Positions 15,271-24,377 of a stretch of 26,272 nucleotides of DNA are shown piece after piece. The notes under the pieces were generated by a model. That model was not told the DNA's origin. It saw nothing but the letters and a program-made list of their open reading frames with translations, and ran no database searches. The position numbers and the translations under genes were made by a program. Source of the DNA: an uncultured Deferribacteres bacterium. Its GTDB lineage: Bacteria; Zhuqueibacterota; Zhuqueibacteria; Zhuqueibacterales; Geothermadaptataceae. The stretch spans positions 1 through 26,272 of the forward strand of contig CAXHAT010000109.1 in the NCBI GenBank assembly GCA_964014485.1, in the 5' to 3' direction. The first letter of the stretch is position 1. The number at the start of each line of letters is the position of its first letter.

Positions 15271-17688
15271 TCACCCTTTTACCAGAAAGGCGTCAAGATT
15301 TAGAATGACGTTGGCGGCAATGACCAATGCAGCAAGGCGTGCGCTGTTTTCGTTCTTAGCTCCGACGACCTGCGAAGCCGCTTCCGGGGAGCCTTGGTAA
15401 TAGCTGAAGCTTTTTTCATACGCTTGACGCAATTCACCTGGAATGTGCGGATCGGGCTCGGAAATGAGTGCAAGACGGTAGCCAAATCGAAGTTGTTCAT
15501 CCAAGTCACTAGAAATATTTGCCATACGTCGCGCCAAAGCTTGCGCCGCTTCAAAATAGACGGGATCGTTCAGAGTCACCAGCGCTTGCAGCGGCGTATT
15601 CGTGCGAATGCGTCGCGACACGCAAAACTCTCGACTGGGACTGTCGAAAGTCAAAAAAGACGGGTATGGGCTCGACTTGCGTGTAAACGTGTACAATCCT
15701 CGCCGGTATCGATCTTCCCCCCTGCTCTCTCGCCATTTCAACACATGACGAATCACATTCCAGACACCGTCCGGCTGCGGCGGCATCACACTGCGACCAT
15801 ACATTTTTTTGCTCAACAAGCCAGAAACCGCCAATGCCTGGTCGCGCACTTGCTCCGCTGAAAGCCGAACACGCGGAAATCGAGCCAGCCAAATGTTTTC
15901 CGGGTCTATCTCGACATGCGCCGCCGTTGTGTGCGAAACCTGACGGTATGTCGCGGACATAACGATTTCCTTGAGCAGCTTTTTGATGCTCCACTTGTGC
16001 TTGTCCGTAAACTCGACCGCCAGCCAGTCCAGCAATTGCGGATGTGACGGCGCCGCGCCCTGTGTACCAAAATCTTCCAGCGTGGAAACCAGGCCGCATC
16101 CAAAGATTTGGGCCCAAAAACGATTGACCGTGACGCGCGCCGTCAACGGATTCTCGGGGCTGACCAGCCAACGCGCCAGCGCAAGACGATCCTTTGACGC
16201 ATCATCTGAAAAAGCCGGCAAAACTTCCGGCGTACCAGGCTCAACCTCTTGACCATGAACTAACCAGTTGCCGCGTTCGAAAATGTGGGTTTTCCGCCGC
16301 AGGCTGTCAGGCAATTCCTGCATAATCGGCGTACGCACGGGTTCAATCAGCGCCAGCGAGTCGCCCGGCTCAACGTTTTGCAGAATCGTTTGCAAAGATT
16401 CAAAGTCAACGACTCCAGATTCGGAGATTTTAAATTCCGGGGAAGCCTGCGCTGCGAACTGGAAAATACGTTCTTGGTCTGCGAGTGAAAACGTCGGCAA
16501 AGTCGGCGCCTCGTTAGATCTATCGGCGTCGGCGGTATTATTGAAAAAAGCGAAGGATTGGAAGTATTCTTCATGCCGGAAAGGATCGTAAGGGTGGCTG
16601 TGGCACTGCACGCAACTCATGGTCGTGCCCTGCCACACTTCCCATGTCGTATTGACGCGGTCGATGACCGCAGCGGTGCGGAATTCTTCATCATCCGTCC
16701 CGCCTTCATCGTTTGTCATGGTGTTGCGGTGAAAAGCGGTGGCGAGAATCTGGTTTTCCGTTGCGTTCGGCAGCAAGTCTCCGGCAAGCTGCTCGATAGT
16801 AAATTGATCAAACGGCATGTCATCGTTAAACGCCTGAATCACCCAGTCGCGGTAGCGCCAAATGCTGCGATACGGGTCTTTCTGGTAGCCTTGCGAATCG
16901 CCGTAGCGCGCCAAATCGAGCCACATGCTCGCCCAGTGTTCGCCAAAATGCGGCGAAGCCAGCAGCCGGTCAACGACCTTTTCAAACGCCTGCGGCGAAT
17001 CATCCATTAGAAAAGCGTCCGCGTCCTCCAGCGTCGGGGGCAAGCCAATCAAATCCAGGCTCGCGCGCCGAATCAGCGTCTCCTTCCCCGCCTCCGGCGA
17101 CGGCGCCAGCCCCCGCTCCCGCATCTTCCGCAGCACAAAAAAATCAATCTCATTCCGTGACCATTGCTCTTCTCCGCTTTCTACAATGTTAGCGTCATTC
17201 CCGCGCAGGCGGGAATCCAGAGGGGCGTCCCGAACAACGTGCGCTGACGCTTTGCTCTGAACTGGCAGTCCAGTCTTCACTGGCTCAACATACGCCCAAT
17301 GCGTTTCCCATTTCGCGCCTTGCGCAATCCATTTTCTCAGAACGTCAATTTCTATCGGCGACAAGGGCGGCTTATCGGCGGGCATACGCTCCTCAGGATC
17401 ATCCGACGTGATGCGCGCAATCATCTCACTGATTTCCGGCTTGCCCGGAACAATCGCTCGATTCCCGGATTTCACCGCTTGCATGGCCTCTTCTTCAAAC
17501 AAAAAACTCACCCCGCCGTTCTTCCGCACGCCGCCGTGACAGGCCAGACAGTTTTTATTGAGAATCGGCTTCACCTCGGCGTTAAAATCGACCTCGCGCT
17601 GTTCAATCGGCGAGCAGGCCTGCACCGCCAGCAGCAGCACGAAAACGATTTTTGCGGCGGGAAAGAAACGTTGAATTATTACAGCCAT
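15271..17688 (-). CDS. Planctomycete-type cytochrome c / DUF1549 / DUF1553 (PSD1) protein
   Basis: VDFNAEVKPIL..NCLACHGG; HWAY; LIRRASLDLIGLPP; WLDLARYGDS; second CxxCH (CVQCHSHPYDP); NPLTARVTVNRFW; SHPQLLDWLA; TNTPLQALVTLND. Start moved to ATG 17688 (signal peptide with AVQAC); the upstream 84 codons lie mostly in repeats. Confidence 0.9.
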   Translation of the reverse strand: MAVIIQRFFPAAKIVFVLLLAVQACSPIEQREVDFNAEVKPILNKNCLACHGGVRKNGGVSFLFEEEAMQAVKSGNRAIVPGKPEISEMIARITSDDPEERMPADKPPLSPIEIDVLRKWIAQGAKWETHWAYVEPVKTGLPVQSKASAHVVRDAPLDSRLRGNDANIVESGEEQWSRNEIDFFVLRKMRERGLAPSPEAGKETLIRRASLDLIGLPPTLEDADAFLMDDSPQAFEKVVDRLLASPHFGEHWASMWLDLARYGDSQGYQKDPYRSIWRYRDWVIQAFNDDMPFDQFTIEQLAGDLLPNATENQILATAFHRNTMTNDEGGTDDEEFRTAAVIDRVNTTWEVWQGTTMSCVQCHSHPYDPFRHEEYFQSFAFFNNTADADRSNEAPTLPTFSLADQERIFQFAAQASPEFKISESGVVDFESLQTILQNVEPGDSLALIEPVRTPIMQELPDSLRRKTHIFERGNWLVHGQEVEPGTPEVLPAFSDDASKDRLALARWLVSPENPLTARVTVNRFWAQIFGCGLVSTLEDFGTQGAAPSHPQLLDWLAVEFTDKHKWSIKKLLKEIVMSATYRQVSHTTAAHVEIDPENIWLARFPRVRLSAEQVRDQALAVSGLLSKKMYGRSVMPPQPDGVWNVIRHVLKWRESRGEDRYRRGLYTFTRKSSPYPSFLTFDSPSREFCVSRRIRTNTPLQALVTLNDPVYFEAAQALARRMANISSDLDEQLRFGYRLALISEPDPHIPGELRQAYEKSFSYYQGSPEAASQVVGAKNENSARLAALVIAANVILNLDAFLVKG
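17194..17220. repeat. dRS3-like palindrome inside the CDS
   Basis: GTCATTCCCGCGCAGGCGGGAATCCAG contains ATTCCC-N8-GGGAAT; its reverse-complement end GGGAATGAC also occurs at window positions 1-9. Confidence 0.75.
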
Positions 17689-17738
17689 AATTTGAGTTCC
17701 CTGGGTACAGAGTTTTAAGTATGCGATTATACCGAAGC

Positions 17739-17885
17739 CGCCAACCTGAGCGCGAAGCACGTAAAAATTCCCTCTTTGAAGGGGGTAGGGGGATGTTTTG
17801 GGGCGTCGGAGCAAAGGCCGCAGCCTCAAACATCCCCCCCTCCCCGCCCCCCTTCGAAGGGGGAAACTTCGGGCGCTTCGCGCCC
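17739..17885. repeat. Palindromic REP-like element (CCCCCTTCGAAGGGGG type); right arm interrupted
   Basis: GCGCGAAGC/GCTTCGCGC, GGGGGATGTTT/AAACATCCCCC and two CCC.YTTYGAAGGGGG sub-palindromes. Confidence 0.7.
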
Positions 17886-17886
17886 T

Positions 17887-18125
17887 AGAGCGTATTTGGA
17901 AAGTCCCAGCGGGACGAATGAAAATAGCCCGGCGATTCATCGCCGGGGGAAGCGGCCGGGTTTTTCCCTCGTTTGAAGTCCCGTAGGGACGACCGAAATC
18001 AAGCCAAGCGCTGCAATCTCAACCGTCCCTGCGGGACTTCAAGGCGAGAAACGTGACATTTCGCCCCAACGATAAATCGTTGGGCTATTTTCAAGCGTCC
18101 TTCCAGGACTTTCCAAATACGCTCT
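17887..18125. mobile_element. MITE-like non-autonomous element, about 239 bp
   Basis: Perfect 20-bp terminal inverted repeats AGAGCGTATTTGGAAAGTCC / GGACTTTCCAAATACGCTCT; TA at both junctions; symmetric internal GTCCC-N3-GGGAC and TGAAAATAGCCC/GGGCTATTTTCA units; no transposase. Confidence 0.75.
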
Positions 18126-18202
18126 TAGGTTGACGCGCGTCCAAAGCAGTCGGAATGGTCACGAGACGATAAACGTCCGCCGGTTTCATCCGCGAGATGA
18201 GA

Positions 18203-18336
18203 AAGGAGTGCAAGGCTTGCCTTGCTTTTCAGCGGCAGGCGTTTTCTGAATCGCGAATTTCATCTTATCTTTTGCTGGAATGTTTGTTTTTTGTTCGGTT
18301 GAGCGAGTGAAAGGCAAAGCAAGCTTTGCACTCCTT
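18203..18336. repeat. Inverted REP doublet (AGGAGTGCAAGGCTTGCCTTGC family)
   Basis: 18203-18225 and an inverted copy at 18314-18336; a third copy at 24376-24397. Confidence 0.75.
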
Positions 18337-18478
18337 GCGGTGATACAGACAACCGTTTTTCCTTTCACGCCTCTGGGTAACCGCTGTCGTTAATATTTTT
18401 CATGAGTGCGGCTTCCGCCTCACGAAAAAGCTGCATTTGTATAGCGTCAACTCCATTTCTGAAAACCAAAAAAATTTT

Positions 18479-18527
18479 CCCGCTTCGCGGGGCTCAAAGG
18501 GTAAAAAGTGTAAAAAGCGCTCAAAGT
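18479..18527 (-). promoter_or_regulatory. Putative DGR target-recognition region (3' tract plus GAA-loop hairpin)
   Basis: After the stop, on the minus strand: ACTTTGAGCGCTTTTTACACTTTTTACCCTTTGAGC then CCCGC-GAA-GCGGG. Confidence 0.55.
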
Positions 18528-21500
18528 TTAAGGGACGTCCTGGGAGCAACGAAAACCCACATTGACGTACCTGAGGGTTGGAACGTACCCGTAGCGGTCG
18601 GCGCATCGTAAATCGTATGGATAATTGCTCCACGACCCGCCGCGCAACACACGAAGTTCTCCTGTTTTTGGCCCCGTCGGATTTTCTATAACGGCAGACG
18701 ACGTTTCGTATTTCGCATACCAGTCTAACCGCCATTCCCATACATTGCCCGCCAGATCACAAACTTTCTCCGGCGTAACTCCGCGCGGAAAAATGCCGAC
18801 CGCACTTGTACGCTCCAAACCGGTTTCGTCATAATTCGCCCGCTCCATGTCCGGTTTTTCATCGCCCCAAGGATAAATCCGCCCTTCGCCGTCGCGCGCG
18901 GCGTATTCGCCTTCCGCTTCCGTCGGCAGCCGGACAGTCACTCCTTTCGGCAAATCCAGCTTCTCCGTCAGCCAGTTGCAAAACGCCTCGGCCTCGAACC
19001 ATGAGACGCCGACCACGGGCTGGTTGGGCGCATTCCATGCCGAATCGTTCCACCAGTGCGGCTCGGACAATTCCTTTTTTTTGCAAAATTGCCAGCCGCC
19101 TTCACTCCACCATCTGCGTTCGCGGTAGCCGCCTGCCTGTATAAAACTCGCGAACTGCGCGTTGGTCACCAGATATTTCGAGATTTTAAATGGCAAGACT
19201 CTGACGCGATGTTCCGGGCTGGCGTCGTATAGCCCGGTAATTGTGTTGTCGCCCATCACGAATTCGCCGCCGGGAATGTCGATCCATTGCGGTTCCAAAG
19301 TGCAAACGCCGGGGCGCGGATCGCCGAGCCTGCCGAGTTGGAGTCCGGCTTCGGCGCGTTCGCGGGCGGGCAGGCGGCTGGTTTCGAGCAAGGTTACAAG
19401 GCGTTTGGTTAGGCGGTCGATAAAAGCCGGGCCGCCGCGGTCTTGCAGGATCACGTTTTTACCGATTTCATTGGCGAAGCAGGCGGCCCAAAACACGCCG
19501 CGCCAGCCGTTTTCGTCCTCCGGCGGAGGCACCGTTTCCGGGCACAGGTGGCAGGCGGCGTCAATGGCCGGAAACTCGGTCTGCATGTTGTGCAGCAGTT
19601 CTTCCACGCCCAGTTGCGCGGTGAGGCGCCAATAGTCGCCCTCGGGCAGGAGATTGACCAATTCGCGCTTAAAATCGCGCGTACGTTTGGCGAGAAAGCA
19701 GCCGGCGAAATATTCCTGAAAAGTGCGGTGCGGAAAGCCGTAGGTGCGGCTCTCTCCGCCCCCGCGTCCGCTCAAGAGTCCGGCGCTGTGGTCGACAAAA
19801 TCGAGAAATTTCTCCGCCGCCGTCAACGGAAACTCAACGCCGCTGAAATTGCGTTTGAGAATTTTCACCGCTTCGTCTTCCGGCAAATCAGCGCCCTGCG
19901 CGCTGCCGGAATCGCGGTCGGCCTGCTGGGCACGCCAGCCCAATTCCCACAGCGCCTGGTGCAGTTTGTTCTCGTCCTTGAGTCCGATTTCCTCGAACAA
20001 AGTGATTTTCCCAGCCTTTTCTTCCTGCCAGCGCAGCAGCAAAAGATCGCTGGCTTTTTTATAAAGCTTGACGCGCTGTTTCGGCAGTTCCACATTGTTG
20101 GCGTGGATCACAGCCATCGTGGTCAGTAAAAGCGGATTTTGCACCAGGGTTTTGTCCATATGCCCGACCGCGTTCCGCAGACTCGCTTTCTTTTCCTCGC
20201 CTTTTTCCAAAGTAAAATGATCGACGTGGATCAGCGCGTCGTACCAGCGCTGGATGAATCTCTCGATCTGTCCATCGTCGAACGGCGCCAGCGTCACATG
20301 CTTGCAGGCGGCAAGACGGGTTTGACCTTCGTAGGAACGCACGCGGCAGGTGACAATCACGCGGCTGCCGGGATTTTCGGCGCAAAAGGCTTCAATCGCT
20401 TCACGCGCCAAAACGCGCGGCACGGTCGGCGCTTCGTCGAGACCGTCGAAGACAATCAGGCAGTGACCGTCGGCGATTTCTTCGCGCAGGGCCGGGGCAA
20501 AATCTTCGGCGTCGTAATCTTCCTTGAGCTTGGCGGCGAGATGCTGGAAAACGATTTCATTCAACCGCTTTTGCCGCTGGAGGGCGCCCTCCTTTTTGCC
20601 GGATTCTGGACGGCTTTTTTCCAGCGCCACGACCAACTCTCGCACCAGCGCCCGCACCGGAAAACAATGCGCGTGCGGCCATTTTTCGAGCATCGCGCTC
20701 TCGCCGCCCCACTGTTTGGCGGCCAGCCCTGAGAGCAAGCGGTTGATAAACGAGCTTTTGCCGGCGCCGGGATCGCCGAGAATGACGAGATGATCATTTT
20801 GCGCCGCCGCCGTAAGCACGGCAAGTGGCAAGGTTTTGTCTTCTCCAGAGCGTTCGTCAACCCGCATTTTCTCTGACAAAATTGGCTTGCCGTCTTTGTC
20901 CACGCGGTCGGTGGTATTGAGATCGACGTAAACGTCTCCGAGAGACAGGCGGGCGTTTTTTTGCGGGTCGCGCTCTTCGGCAATGGCGGAGAGCGGCAGG
21001 CGGTCGCAGGCGGCTTGCAGTTTTTTCAGGTAGCGCCGCCGCACGCGGGCAAGATCGACCGCCGGCTTCGCGCTCGGCGTTTTGGGAGCGGCGTCCCGGT
21101 CTTTTTCACGCATCTCATCAATCAGCTTTTGCAAATCGATGCGGACGGCGTCTTTAAAATCCTGCGCTGTGTTGTACTCGCGATAGAGTCCTTCGTAATC
21201 GCCGCCCGCCTTGAATTTCGCGAAGAAGTCGTTCACTTTTTGCAGATGCTTCAGCACGTCCGGCTGAAAAAAATCTTCCGGCGGGCGGGTGCAGCGGTAC
21301 ATCATGATTTCCGGGCGGCCGGTTTTTTCAAATTGATCGAGCGCTGCGACAAACTCCTCCTCGAGTCCGCTTTCAAACGGTGCGCCGTCGGGCTTGTCGG
21401 CGCCGGTGGGCTGGCCAAACCGTTTCCAGAGCACGCCGACAAAAACGTCCCAGGTTTCCGGCGGAATCTGATCGAGCACGCGTTGCTGCGGGCGGCCCTG

Positions 21501-21662
21501 CTGCGGACGCGTATTCTTTTCCCAGCCGAGAAACGACAACGTAAGGCCGCGATTGTCGTAAACCAAATTCAATTCATTGATCACTTCGCGCAGGGCTTTT
21601 CGCTCTGCCGTTACGTCGGTCGGCGAAGCGCAAAATATGCGGATTTTTTGGGTTTTGGGCAT
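18528..21662 (-). CDS. DUF4062 - NACHT (STAND) NTPase - FGE-sulfatase/SUMF1 (C-type lectin fold) protein
   Basis: DUF4062 (RIFCASPTDVTAER...DVFVGVLWKRFG...SGLEEEF); Walker A GDPGAGKS, Walker B LIVFDGLDE, VIVTCR, NPLLLT, FPHRTFQEYFA; LGRLGDPR linker; FGE domain (IPGGEFVMG, VTNAQF, PVVGVSWFEA, RLPTEAE, DLAGNVWEW, RVLRGGSW...GFRC). Confidence 0.92.
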   Translation of the reverse strand: MPKTQKIRIFCASPTDVTAERKALREVINELNLVYDNRGLTLSFLGWEKNTRPQQGRPQQRVLDQIPPETWDVFVGVLWKRFGQPTGADKPDGAPFESGLEEEFVAALDQFEKTGRPEIMMYRCTRPPEDFFQPDVLKHLQKVNDFFAKFKAGGDYEGLYREYNTAQDFKDAVRIDLQKLIDEMREKDRDAAPKTPSAKPAVDLARVRRRYLKKLQAACDRLPLSAIAEERDPQKNARLSLGDVYVDLNTTDRVDKDGKPILSEKMRVDERSGEDKTLPLAVLTAAAQNDHLVILGDPGAGKSSFINRLLSGLAAKQWGGESAMLEKWPHAHCFPVRALVRELVVALEKSRPESGKKEGALQRQKRLNEIVFQHLAAKLKEDYDAEDFAPALREEIADGHCLIVFDGLDEAPTVPRVLAREAIEAFCAENPGSRVIVTCRVRSYEGQTRLAACKHVTLAPFDDGQIERFIQRWYDALIHVDHFTLEKGEEKKASLRNAVGHMDKTLVQNPLLLTTMAVIHANNVELPKQRVKLYKKASDLLLLRWQEEKAGKITLFEEIGLKDENKLHQALWELGWRAQQADRDSGSAQGADLPEDEAVKILKRNFSGVEFPLTAAEKFLDFVDHSAGLLSGRGGGESRTYGFPHRTFQEYFAGCFLAKRTRDFKRELVNLLPEGDYWRLTAQLGVEELLHNMQTEFPAIDAACHLCPETVPPPEDENGWRGVFWAACFANEIGKNVILQDRGGPAFIDRLTKRLVTLLETSRLPARERAEAGLQLGRLGDPRPGVCTLEPQWIDIPGGEFVMGDNTITGLYDASPEHRVRVLPFKISKYLVTNAQFASFIQAGGYRERRWWSEGGWQFCKKKELSEPHWWNDSAWNAPNQPVVGVSWFEAEAFCNWLTEKLDLPKGVTVRLPTEAEGEYAARDGEGRIYPWGDEKPDMERANYDETGLERTSAVGIFPRGVTPEKVCDLAGNVWEWRLDWYAKYETSSAVIENPTGPKTGELRVLRGGSWSNYPYDLRCADRYGYVPTLRYVNVGFRCSQDVP
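18546..18644 (-). other. Candidate DGR variable region (VR)
   Basis: RGGSW-SNYPYD-LRCA-DRYGYVPTLRYVN-VGFRC; 13 canonical variable positions are all NNY codons. Confidence 0.65.
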
Positions 21663-21956: not shown

Positions 21957-24377
21957 ATGAAAAGTATCCGCCGCCGCAAATCAAGTCGATTTTCCCCAAT
22001 CTTTTTGATTGTCATTTTATTGCTGATCGCCGCCGCTTACCGCACAACGGAAGACGCGCCTCAGCATTTTTACTACGACGCAGCTGATAGCTCCGTCGCC
22101 GTCGAATATCTCGGAAACACGGAATTTTACGATCCGGGCGTTGCGGTCAACGACGGCGAGGTTTGGCTGACCTGGCTGGAATTTATCCCCGGCGAAGGAG
22201 ACGTGATTTGGGTCGGCAAAAAGGATGGAGATGGTTGGGCGAATCAGCAAAAAGTCATCGAACAGCCCGGGCGTTTTGCCAGGCCAACGCTGACTTTTGA
22301 TAGTAAAAAGCGACTTTGGCTAAGTTATGAGCGATACGTCCCTAAGCAAAAACAGTGGGACGTTGTGGCGAGAATGCACGAAGGCGACGGCAAATTCGGC
22401 CCGCCAATGACCGTTTCCGAAAATCCGGGAAATGACATTAACCACAGCGTCGCCGCCGGAAAAGACGGCGCGCTTTGGTTCGCCTGGCAGGGAGATCACG
22501 AAGGTCGCTTTGAAATATTCGCTCGGCGTTTAAGCGAAGAAGTTTCTGCGGAGAAAATGGAACGAATCAGTCACACCGCCCACGGAGATTGGCGCCCGTC
22601 CATCGCCGTCGGGAGCAGCGGCGACGTTGTGGTTGCCTGGGATTATTACAACGGCGAAGACTTCGATGTTTTGTACAAGCGTCGAACTCCCGGTGGGTGG
22701 AAAGAAACCATCGTTGCAGCGGGAGGCCCAGCCTTTCAAGGGCGCGCTCAAATTGCTGCGAATTCAAAAAATGAATTCTGGCTGCTGTGGGAAGAAGGCG
22801 AGAAAAATTGGGGAAAATTCTATCGCGGAAACGAGAAAGTTTGGGACAATGTGACCGACGCTTACGGCCCGGTTCATCGTTTCCGCACGCTGAAAATCGC
22901 AAAGCTCGACGCACAAAATCGCATTTCAACGCCAGCCTCTCCCCTGCCGACGCCTGCATTTCAAAAAGCGGATCAACGGAAGAATCTGAGGCAAGCGTCT
23001 GAAAAACTTGGGGCGTTTTATGAGCGCGGCAAGTTAGCGATTGATGAAAAAGATCGGCTTTGGGTCGCTTACCGCCATTTTTATCAGCCGCAACTTGGCG
23101 CAGCGGAACCGGTCATTCACCACATCGAGGCTGGATGGAAAATTTTTGCGCGCAGGCTGGAAAAAGACGGGTGGTCGGAGCTCATTTCCTTTGACGCGCA
23201 CCAACGCGACGGTTTGCAGCGTTTGAGCATTGCTGCAAAAAATGACCAATTATTGGCTGCGTACAGCGCTGGAAGAACGGATCGACGAAACGACGCCCAG
23301 ACGCGCGGCGTTGTTTTCGGCGAGATTGACCGCAAAGCCGGAGAATCTCCAGCCATAAAGCTTGAGAACGTCAAAACATTCGCGCTGGCCAATGAAAAAA
23401 CGTACGTTCCTGAGCATCCTTCATTTCAGGGTCGCCGACTATTTTGGGGCGATCTGCACCGCCACACGGATATTTCGCTCTGTTTCCCGTTCTACGACGG
23501 CTCTCTCGACGACGGCTACCGCTACGGCATTGAAGCCGGAGCGCTCGATTTCCTGGCGATCACGGATCATTCGCGCGACATTGACAAAGGCAACGTGCAA
23601 AGCCAGCTCTGGTGGCGCAGCTTGAAGGAAGTCACGCGTCACAGTTTACACGAATCGTTTTTTCCCTATTTCGCCTTTGAGCGCAGCAATAACAACACAG
23701 ATCACAACGTCATTTCCTTAAACGAAGATATTCTGCGACCGCATCAGCCGCCGCTGCCGGAATTCTGGGCGGAGATTGATGAGAATACTTTCACAATTCC
23801 GCATCGGACGGCGCCGACTCCGGCGGAGCCGCTTAACGGCAAAATCTGGGAATATCACGACGAAGCCAAACGTCCGTTGCTGGAAATTTTTCAAGGCTTC
23901 CGTGACATGGACGTTGAAGAAAGCGCAAATACAGGCTTGGAAAAAGGCTATCGTTTTGGTTTCGTCGCCAGCAGCGATCATCTCTCCACTTCCGCAAGTT
24001 ACGCCGGCGTTTGGGCTGAAGAAGCCAGTAAGGAAAGTATTTTTCACGCTATGAAATCGCGGCGAACATTCGGCGCAACCGACAGGATCAGCCTGGTTCT
24101 TCGCGCCGGGGATCGTTGGATGGGCGAAAAGTTTTCGGCGAAGCAATTCCCGGAATTTCAGATCAATGTTCGCGGAACGGCGCCGATCAAGGCTGTGATT
24201 TTTAAACAAAACGGCAAGCAAATCGCGTCGCTGCCGTTTGAGGCGGGCTCGAAGGATTTAGCATTGAGTTTTACTCCCCCAAGCATCGAAGCTGGCGAAC
24301 ACTATTTTTACGTTCACACCATTCAGGCAGACGGCAATCAGGCTTGGTCGTCGCCGATTTGGGTTCAGATTGAGTAG
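21957..24377 (+). CDS. Secreted protein with N-terminal beta-propeller-like repeats and a PHP-like metallohydrolase domain (DUF3604/CehA-McbA-like)
   Basis: Basic/hydrophobic signal; repeated P.[LI]...G..W..W blades; FWGDLHRHT, LDFLAITDH, TIPH, GFVASSDH, AMKSRRTFG; C-terminal YFYVHTIQADGNQAWSSPIWV. Confidence 0.8.
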   Translation: MKSIRRRKSSRFSPIFLIVILLLIAAAYRTTEDAPQHFYYDAADSSVAVEYLGNTEFYDPGVAVNDGEVWLTWLEFIPGEGDVIWVGKKDGDGWANQQKVIEQPGRFARPTLTFDSKKRLWLSYERYVPKQKQWDVVARMHEGDGKFGPPMTVSENPGNDINHSVAAGKDGALWFAWQGDHEGRFEIFARRLSEEVSAEKMERISHTAHGDWRPSIAVGSSGDVVVAWDYYNGEDFDVLYKRRTPGGWKETIVAAGGPAFQGRAQIAANSKNEFWLLWEEGEKNWGKFYRGNEKVWDNVTDAYGPVHRFRTLKIAKLDAQNRISTPASPLPTPAFQKADQRKNLRQASEKLGAFYERGKLAIDEKDRLWVAYRHFYQPQLGAAEPVIHHIEAGWKIFARRLEKDGWSELISFDAHQRDGLQRLSIAAKNDQLLAAYSAGRTDRRNDAQTRGVVFGEIDRKAGESPAIKLENVKTFALANEKTYVPEHPSFQGRRLFWGDLHRHTDISLCFPFYDGSLDDGYRYGIEAGALDFLAITDHSRDIDKGNVQSQLWWRSLKEVTRHSLHESFFPYFAFERSNNNTDHNVISLNEDILRPHQPPLPEFWAEIDENTFTIPHRTAPTPAEPLNGKIWEYHDEAKRPLLEIFQGFRDMDVEESANTGLEKGYRFGFVASSDHLSTSASYAGVWAEEASKESIFHAMKSRRTFGATDRISLVLRAGDRWMGEKFSAKQFPEFQINVRGTAPIKAVIFKQNGKQIASLPFEAGSKDLALSFTPPSIEAGEHYFYVHTIQADGNQAWSSPIWVQIE

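Follow-up and report, generated by a model that had tools for sequence, protein, structure and literature searches.

An RT copies the RNA of the template repeat (TR) in DGRs and misreads its adenines, and the cDNA then replaces the variable region (VR) of a target gene; AAY codons of the TR turn in this way into NNY codons on the ligand-binding face of a lectin fold. Proteins that combine a NACHT domain with a DGR-type lectin have been proposed to act as antigen sensors in bacterial conflict systems. The excerpted report on Thiohalocapsa describes NACHT/STAND-CLec proteins as DGR targets, activity in trans and one target that does not vary, as well as degenerate DGR loci and VRs devoid of a perfect TR match elsewhere in the genome (PMC10907252). 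For cyanobacteria, the portions of a survey considered here state that 121 of 219 CLec orthologs appear to be DGR-diversified and that CLec paralogs with less than 50% identity are referred to as 'VP homologs', with remote VPs being present too (PMC7517822). The class to which the gene presented here belongs is already known, and the TR-less situation has already been described for such genes.

Our window, that is, the whole stretch of DNA that was analysed (26,272 nucleotides), is one entire contig (C109) of the draft assembly of an uncultured Deferribacteres bacterium (GCA_964014485.1; 8.4 Mb in 465 contigs, 97% complete by marker genes). On its minus strand, at 18528..21662, the ORF list, Pfam and the homologs place a gene with an intact frame for a STAND-type sensor protein of 1044 residues. 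The N-terminal region of this protein (residues 7-252; 20907..21644, minus strand) is like the defence candidate PDC-S60 (PADLOC PDLC05050, E=1.6e-27), and residues 8-105 yield a weak DUF4062 match with a score of 18.6 bits, under the Pfam cut-off of 24.7. Further along the chain are a NACHT NTPase domain (residues 292-474; 20241..20789, minus strand; PF05729, 32.0 bits versus a gathering score of 26.7) and, at the C-terminus, an FGE-sulfatase / C-type-lectin-fold domain (residues 790-1039; 18546..19295, minus strand; PF03781, E=8.2e-59). In the PDB, the latter matches by sequence EgtB, FGE chains and, with E=4.3e-17, a variable protein of Treponema (2y3c). The M-C-H-R-S-Y-C stretch of human FGE, the two cysteines of which we take to be catalytic, aligns with a three-residue gap and a proline in our protein. 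Since the enzyme's cysteine stretch thus faces a gap and non-cysteine residues, the FGE-fold domain is predicted to be of the binding type rather than catalytic. A role as a catalytic formylglycine-generating enzyme was considered and rejected, because the cysteine pair is missing in the alignment to human FGE chains.

The codon imprint at the 3' end of the gene

The 3' end of the gene harbors a VR-like stretch of 36 codons (18546..18653, minus strand), which reads R-V-L-R-G-G-S-W ... G-F-R-C and agrees in length and register with verified TRs. An earlier, sequence-only reading of the window had quoted a string of codons from this stretch and related it to the mutation of adenines. The string is indeed present on the minus strand; its TGG...TGC part corresponds to 18546-18632, and the range originally assigned to it, starting at 18644, takes in four further codons (R G G S). 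Among the 14 codons that had been singled out, there are 13 NNY codons and one GGG, with codons for K, E, Q, M and W as well as stop codons being absent. When compared with TRs, the imprinted codons are located on the minus strand at 18627-29, 18624-26, 18621-23, 18615-17, 18612-14, 18597-99 and 18591-93 (codons 1-7), and at 18588-90 (the GGG), 18585-87, 18582-84, 18573-75, 18567-69, 18564-66 and 18561-63 (codons 8-14).

For an assessment of chance, the positions to be inspected were set by 10 distinct verified TRs of the family, and thus independently of the gene itself, with the proportion of NNY codons in the gene (0.525, n = 1001 codons) serving as the binomial background. Where at least 8 of the 10 TRs carry AAY, the gene exhibits NNY at 10 of 10 positions (P = 0.0016), and where at least 3 of them do so, at 14 of 15 (P = 0.0009); the 14 positions chosen by the sequence-only reading yield 13 of 14 (P = 0.0017). 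Fisher tests comparing imprint positions with the remaining VR codons gave values of 0.004-0.01, and verified VRs have NNY at 114 of 120 core positions. The GGG codon stands where 8 of the 10 verified TRs carry AGG, in line with the earlier suggestion that it is derivable from AGG. Moreover, the stretch matches the verified TR consensus W-NNN-x-x-N-VRCA-x-R-N-R-N-N-P-N-N-R-N-x-N-N-GFR, and the imprint is undecayed. The reservation that many of these codons are NNY by virtue of the genetic code was well placed: just four of them belong to four-fold boxes (GTT, ACC, CTC, GTC), and although all four end in Y, compared with a background of 278 of 493, this count taken alone is weak evidence.

Comparison with homologs points to the same positions. 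Among 8000 scored candidates, 4484 homologs of the C-terminal third were detected at E<=1e-10, and both the NACHT and the FGE domain recur in many of the best 120 of these 4484. P0004 and P0005, which come closest, have 57% and 55% identity to our protein over the C-terminal third and 45-46% overall, and a family search in 10 genomes (including the source genome) revealed no close ortholog, the best foreign match being 34% identical. Within residues 1004-1043, 25 of 40 residues are invariant among the 1044-residue protein, P0004 and P0005, and the 15 residues that differ include all 14 imprinted positions. Hence, because NNY is found at 10 of 10 TR-defined AAY positions, because GGG stands at the AGG site, and because homologs differ precisely there, we classify the stretch as a DGR-type variable region. 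The imprint of adenine mutagenesis that had been proposed is thus corroborated: it is position-specific, it fits the TR consensus of verified relatives, and it places GGG at an AGG site.

A TR had likewise been predicted from the VR, using the rule that AA followed by the kept third base is inserted at variable positions while the VR base is retained elsewhere. Applied to 12 verified VR-TR pairs, this rule provides the right codon at 136 of 168 variable and 95 of 120 scaffold codons, corresponding to 791 of 864 bases (92%; 62-69 of 72 bases per pair). It recovers the exact TR for 0 of the 12 pairs, because mutable positions of TRs are also occupied by AGG, CAA, ACA, GAA and AAG and because adenines of the scaffold are subject to mutation as well. 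The predictability of a TR from its VR therefore holds at the level of most bases and fails at the level of the exact sequence, and the predicted TR is a usable probe, not a reconstruction.

Template repeats in the source genome and around homologs

Neither a TR nor an RT is located beside the gene. BLAST of the VR region against all 465 contigs returned itself and a 42-nt match in the flank of a VR on contig C1 only. An adenine-tolerant scan of the 465 contigs over 133 nt, in which an adenine of the genome counts as compatible with every VR base and at least 72% of the 133 positions have to be matching or adenine-explained, returned the VR itself only, and thirteen 45-nt sub-windows of the VR, scanned over the whole assembly in the same adenine-tolerant manner with at most 3 non-A mismatches, returned 0 matches. 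In a listing of all windows of 24 codons that contain 8 or more AAY codons, the five known TRs of this genome ranked on top and the others listed were not TR-like. The repeat anticipated by the sequence-only reading was thus not encountered by BLAST, adenine-tolerant scans or AAY-window listing over 8.4 Mb in 465 contigs. Lack of such a repeat together with invariance among orthologs had been named as evidence against the imprint; the repeat was not found, and the nearest homologs vary at the stretch instead of being invariant.

Beyond the assembly, the exact 25-mer at the 3' end of the VR had 0 matches in metagenome contigs and 0 in viral contigs, in a search that is blind to a TR with one adenine difference there. 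A protein-guided metagenome scan yielded a single locus (L108, 52% identity), which is devoid of a TR and exhibits a less clean signature. The VR is identical, with no variants listed, in Logan contigs that stem from three runs of a single study (at a depth of 2-7, minority variants being invisible), so that the sequence variation expected at these codons was not seen there. For two of these three runs, contig termini fall at 18620-18628, on the first variable codons.

The same genome contains several verified VR-TR pairs, those on C94/C428, C1 and C343 being of the FGE type; RT neighbourhoods were compared by BLAST with a filter for adenine-type mismatches. Six RVT_1 matches are present, and the DGR-type RTs (PF00078) on contigs C94, C135 and C74, which share an LPIG..TSQ motif that we take to be a DGR hallmark, adjoin TRs with adenine-type VR pairs. 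The TR on C94 (28232-28356) pairs in this manner with two VRs on C94 and one on C428, the TR on C74 with two VRs on C74 and further ones on C135 (21518-21614) and C30, and the TR on C135 with two VRs. Another TR, on C1 (112153-112268), is paired with a VR at 111825-111943 in a 928-residue NACHT-FGE paralog, 18 of 22 mismatches being at adenines, and this TR is followed by the gene for a REP-associated tyrosine transposase, not an RT; the fifth, on C343 (757-856), has its VR at 1342-1441. Two of the five TRs have no adjoining RT, pieces of DGRs reside on contigs as short as those of C343 (5.4 kb) and C428 (2.5 kb), and the verified remote VRs on C428, C30 and C135 (21518-21614) have their TRs on other contigs. 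Because of these verified cross-contig pairs and of TRs without an RT, remote targets and RT-less TRs are normal in the source genome. The paralog on C1 shares with our gene the NACHT-FGE architecture, a 26-nt flank motif, a hairpin and a T-run; however, it possesses its own TR 210 nt downstream, whereas the gene for the 1044-residue protein has none.

TR-less genes are also frequent among the relatives. From species-representative genomes, 77 homolog loci were fetched, of which 57 reach the C-terminus and 55 were scanned (20 were left out for lack of the C-terminus and 2 because of a contig end). A cognate TR is located within 9 of the 55 loci, and none within the remaining 46, with full 10-kb flanks being available for 13 of the 46. 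Three TR-less loci that belong to large assemblies (L063, L104 and L091) were subjected to a genome-wide TR search, which revealed absence of the TR in 3 of 3 cases, and the positive controls of this search recovered the TR in 2 of 2. The same 24-residue spacing is found in 37 of 51 homolog loci, and among these 37 an imprint at 9 or more of 10 positions is exhibited by 8 of 8 TR-linked and 24 of 29 TR-less loci. Likewise, variable codons in four-fold boxes end in Y in 29 of 33 cases at TR-linked and 107 of 126 cases at TR-less loci, compared with a background of 0.49. Since TR-less loci keep Y as often as TR-linked ones, the imprint cannot separate a frozen from an active VR, and it marks DGR authorship, not present activity; many of the 'TR-less' genes may still be being written. 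The closest verified relative, L031 (Verrucomicrobia MAG contig JAJFLO010000040.1), is a target-RT-TR-target cassette. The NACHT-FGE protein of 1060 residues that it encodes shares the 24-residue VR core with ours and is 46% identical to it in the best segment. Unlike our locus, the cassette has both an RT (PF00078, E=4.9e-29) and a TR; this TR and the VR agree at 70 of 90 bases, and 19 of the 20 differences are at TR adenines.

The flank downstream of the gene retains features that are also associated with verified VRs. A 26-nt motif just 3' of the stop codon (18501..18526, minus strand) agrees at 24 of 26 positions with the sequence flanking the verified C1 VR. The possibility that this motif is a dispersed repeat was considered and rejected, its matches elsewhere being an 18-nt match on C71 and a few of 15-23 nt at chance level (E 0.6). 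Next comes a GC hairpin with a 5 bp stem and a 3-nt loop, followed by A4 and T7 in a terminator-like arrangement (18469..18491, minus strand), 36 nt downstream of the stop codon, and in L031 the verified VR is followed by a similar T-rich flank and a similar CGCGAAGCG hairpin. The idea of a strong hairpin structure was rejected, since the whole flank folds no better than shuffled sequences (z = +1.08). For phage DGRs, the available text of a study describes a hairpin or cruciform near the VR 3' end with a 7-10 bp GC stem and a 4-nt GRNA loop at a distance of 4-34 bp (PMC3240598). The hairpin found here departs from that description (PMC3240598) in having 5 bp, a 3-nt loop, a position 36 nt past the stop codon and a T-run after it, and it may be a simple terminator.

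Further downstream, and outside the VR, there are two copies of a REP-like element (18201-18240 and 18301-18336, with ~91 and ~95 BLAST matches genome-wide), and contig depth is in excess at 18300-18336. A MITE-like element (17902..18110), likewise outside the VR, has an inverted pair of Acido-Lenti-1 motifs at its ends (RF01687; 48.1 and 48.6 bits versus a gathering score of 37); this motif has 86 matches in the source genome, many of them being inverted pairs ~160 nt apart. The downstream spacer of the gene is thus made up of REP-like copies and a MITE-like element at the place where relatives carry the TR. A repeat finder applied to the window reported 8 direct families, 0 of which touch the VR.

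Explanations for a variable region without a template

The explanation that we favour, albeit by little more than an even chance, is that the stretch represents the orphaned and frozen VR of a NACHT-C-type-lectin sensor. As shown by comparison rather than by experiment, a DGR-type process has written the VR codons of the gene; the template would have been lost since, leaving the VR frozen with an inherited specificity, and small mobile repeats would now fill the downstream spacer in which relatives keep the TR. Several points speak against orphaning: the assembly is a draft of 465 contigs, so that a small TR-bearing contig could be missing; reading frame, flank motif and hairpin have been preserved in a form similar to that at verified VRs; the imprint shows no decay, with Y at the end of 4 of 4 four-fold-box codons, and TR-less relatives keep it as well as TR-linked ones do; and the Logan contigs are too shallow for minority variants to be seen. 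According to another view, the gene is still being rewritten in trans as an active remote target, and the TR, alone or together with an RT, resides on unassembled or unbinned DNA such as a short contig, a plasmid or a prophage. This view, which we regard as rather unlikely, is in accordance with the verified VRs on C428, C30 and C135 that use TRs elsewhere, with the DGR pieces on short contigs and the two TRs without an RT beside them, with the intact imprint, reading frame and VR flank, with contig breaks that coincide with the first variable codons for two of the three runs, and with trans activity as reported in the excerpted Thiohalocapsa study (PMC10907252). It has to contend, however, with the lack of a TR in 8.4 Mb, with a 25-mer of the VR 3' end that is unmatched in metagenome and viral collections (which a one-adenine variant would escape), with an identical VR in contigs of three samples, and with the genuine lack of a TR in all three of the well-assembled relatives tested. 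Hence, an orphaned frozen VR is most likely when compared with an active VR whose TR is unassembled.

That one of the five assembled TRs (C94, C1, C343, C135 or C74) serves as the template is scarcely conceivable: the TR on C94 does share the length, the register and the ...GFRCSQ ending with our VR, but its scaffold codons differ throughout, and 0 of the 5 TRs reach the thresholds of 72% of 133 positions or at most 3 mismatches per 45 nt. It may also be asked if there has been any DGR history at all, given that a lectin site in which Tyr, Asn, Asp and Ser abound would yield NNY by ordinary selection or common descent. Indeed, 10 of the 14 codons are those for Tyr, Asn, Asp or Ser(AGY) and are NNY by code, so that the four DNA-informative codons, with 4 of 4 against a background of ~0.56, weigh little, and the statistical support as a whole is only about P 0.001-0.002. 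We nonetheless deem this origin improbable, for the NNY codons correspond one for one with AAY of 10 verified TRs, and GGG with AGG; the scaffold between them is invariant in homologs which are only 45% identical overall; and FGE paralogs of the same genome that are not targets (C46, C14 and C1 at 59584) have codons for K, E and W in the corresponding stretch. Furthermore, the Y share in four-fold boxes of the pooled relatives (85-88% versus 49%) is not explained by amino-acid selection.

It is thus of importance for the detection of such genes that a VR can be recognised by its codon imprint alone, while its TR is only approximable, to about 92% of bases, and that the imprint gives no proof that the element remains active. 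What is encountered here is a sensor gene of known class (NACHT plus DGR-type lectin) that is now without its diversifier. Since TR-less imprinted copies are frequent among relatives, surveys relying on TR-VR pairing undercount the genes shaped by hypermutation. It is tempting to go a step further and speculate, if only tentatively, that template loss routinely locks in DGR-written sensor specificities, and that our gene, like another one on contig C289, encodes a frozen receptor. If so, the durable imprint (Y at 85% of four-fold-box sites in TR-less relatives) could serve to spot former DGR targets, and to date them roughly, in the absence of any TR, and would bring to light a large number of so far hidden NACHT sensors with a hypermutated past.

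When viewed alongside known systems, the C-terminal domain resembles that of Treponema denticola TvpA (PDB 2y3c), which has the same FGE-type lectin fold and a C-terminal DGR variable region. TvpA presumably consists of a single domain and is accompanied by a cognate TR and an RT, whereas the 1044-residue protein has a NACHT fusion and no TR. Human SUMF1 (PDB 2aft), a formylglycine-generating enzyme, belongs to the same Pfam family and shares the fold (E about 1e-25), but its cysteine-bearing stretch is replaced in our protein by a three-residue gap and non-cysteine residues. Closer in architecture are DGR 1, 3 and 6 of Thiohalocapsa PB-PSB1, for which the excerpted text describes a central STAND NTPase and a C-terminal FGE-type lectin with the VR (PMC10907252). 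According to the same excerpts, that genome likewise contains several DGR loci, among them RT- or TR-less ones, as well as remote targets and surrounding mobile elements (PMC10907252); our gene differs in being without any matching TR and in stemming from another organism than the one described there (PMC10907252). The remote VPs and VP homologs of cyanobacteria are similar in that they are scattered CLec paralogs, many of them without usable TR homology (PMC7517822). In the portions of that survey considered here, classes are defined by TR/VR identity and not by the codon imprint in TR-less members (PMC7517822), and in the terms given there the gene for the 1044-residue protein is a 'VP homolog' (PMC7517822).

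Surroundings of the sensor gene

The NACHT-FGE sensor gene lies between two genes which bear no relation to diversity-generating retroelements (DGRs), namely one for an 889-residue PSCyt1/PSCyt2/PSD1 protein (15271–17940, minus strand) and one for an 806-residue DUF3604 protein (21957–24377, plus strand). Small mobile repeats lie in the DNA downstream of the sensor gene, and the listed start of the PSCyt1/PSCyt2/PSD1 gene probably reads through repeat DNA. Two Acido-Lenti-1 RNA motifs (RF01687, scoring over the gathering threshold) form an inverted pair at 17902–17947 (minus strand) and 18065–18110 (plus strand), and a 248-nt stretch containing them has a copy with 88% identity on another contig of the same draft genome, C7. 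This genome contains 86 Acido-Lenti-1 matches, of which 38 exceed the cut-off; many of the 86 are likewise arranged as inverted pairs spaced by about 160 nt. The motif behaves here like the ends of a MITE. In addition, there are two copies of a ∼34-nt REP-like element (18201–18240 and 18301–18336), which yield ∼91 and ∼95 BLAST matches spread over more than 80 contigs; the element is visible in the sequencing runs, too, as surplus contig depth.

Two of the three runs, X1 and X3, have Logan contigs that begin or stop at 18620–18628, that is, at the first variable codons of the variable region (VR), while the contig of the third run, X2, extends across them. These breaks could reflect branching of the assembly graph through variants, or mere low depth.

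Template repeats and a second VR-like gene

A second VR-like C-terminus without a template repeat (TR) occurs in the draft genome, in an FGE-domain protein of 1022 residues (contig C289, 195–3260, minus strand). As read by eye from the sequences, this VR-like end carries NNY codons at 10 of 10 core positions, defined as those being AAY in at least eight of ten verified family TRs, and its flank holds three CTCTGA repeats and a hairpin. As 194 nt separate the end of this gene from that of the contig, its TR may be located just beyond the contig.

FGE-type TR and reverse transcriptase (RT) occur together only on contig C94 of this genome. Two further FGE-type TRs, within the stretches 112153–113200 of C1 and 1–856 of C343, have no neighbouring RT. 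On C1, the TR is followed by a tyrosine transposase of the REP-associated type (NF047646; 96.7 bits versus a cut-off of 80). On C343, the next feature is an ORF in which a GIY-YIG-like motif was recognized by eye, and then comes the contig end.

Short repeats and hairpin 3' of the VR

When the 110 nt past the G-F-R-C codon were scored (18436–18545 in the window), 29 of the 51 NACHT-FGE homolog loci carried at least three copies of the short repeat TCTG[AG] 3' of the VR; no such cluster was present in coding controls (0/51) or in controls located 300–410 nt further downstream (0/47). In many of the homolog loci, a GC-rich inverted repeat comes after these repeats. The short repeats are absent from the ∼40 nt 3' of those family TRs whose flanks were compared, and could represent a recognition signal on the VR side. 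A T-rich variant is present in the window, on C1, which holds a verified VR–TR pair in a NACHT-FGE paralog, and in L031, the target–RT–TR–target cassette from Verrucomicrobia.
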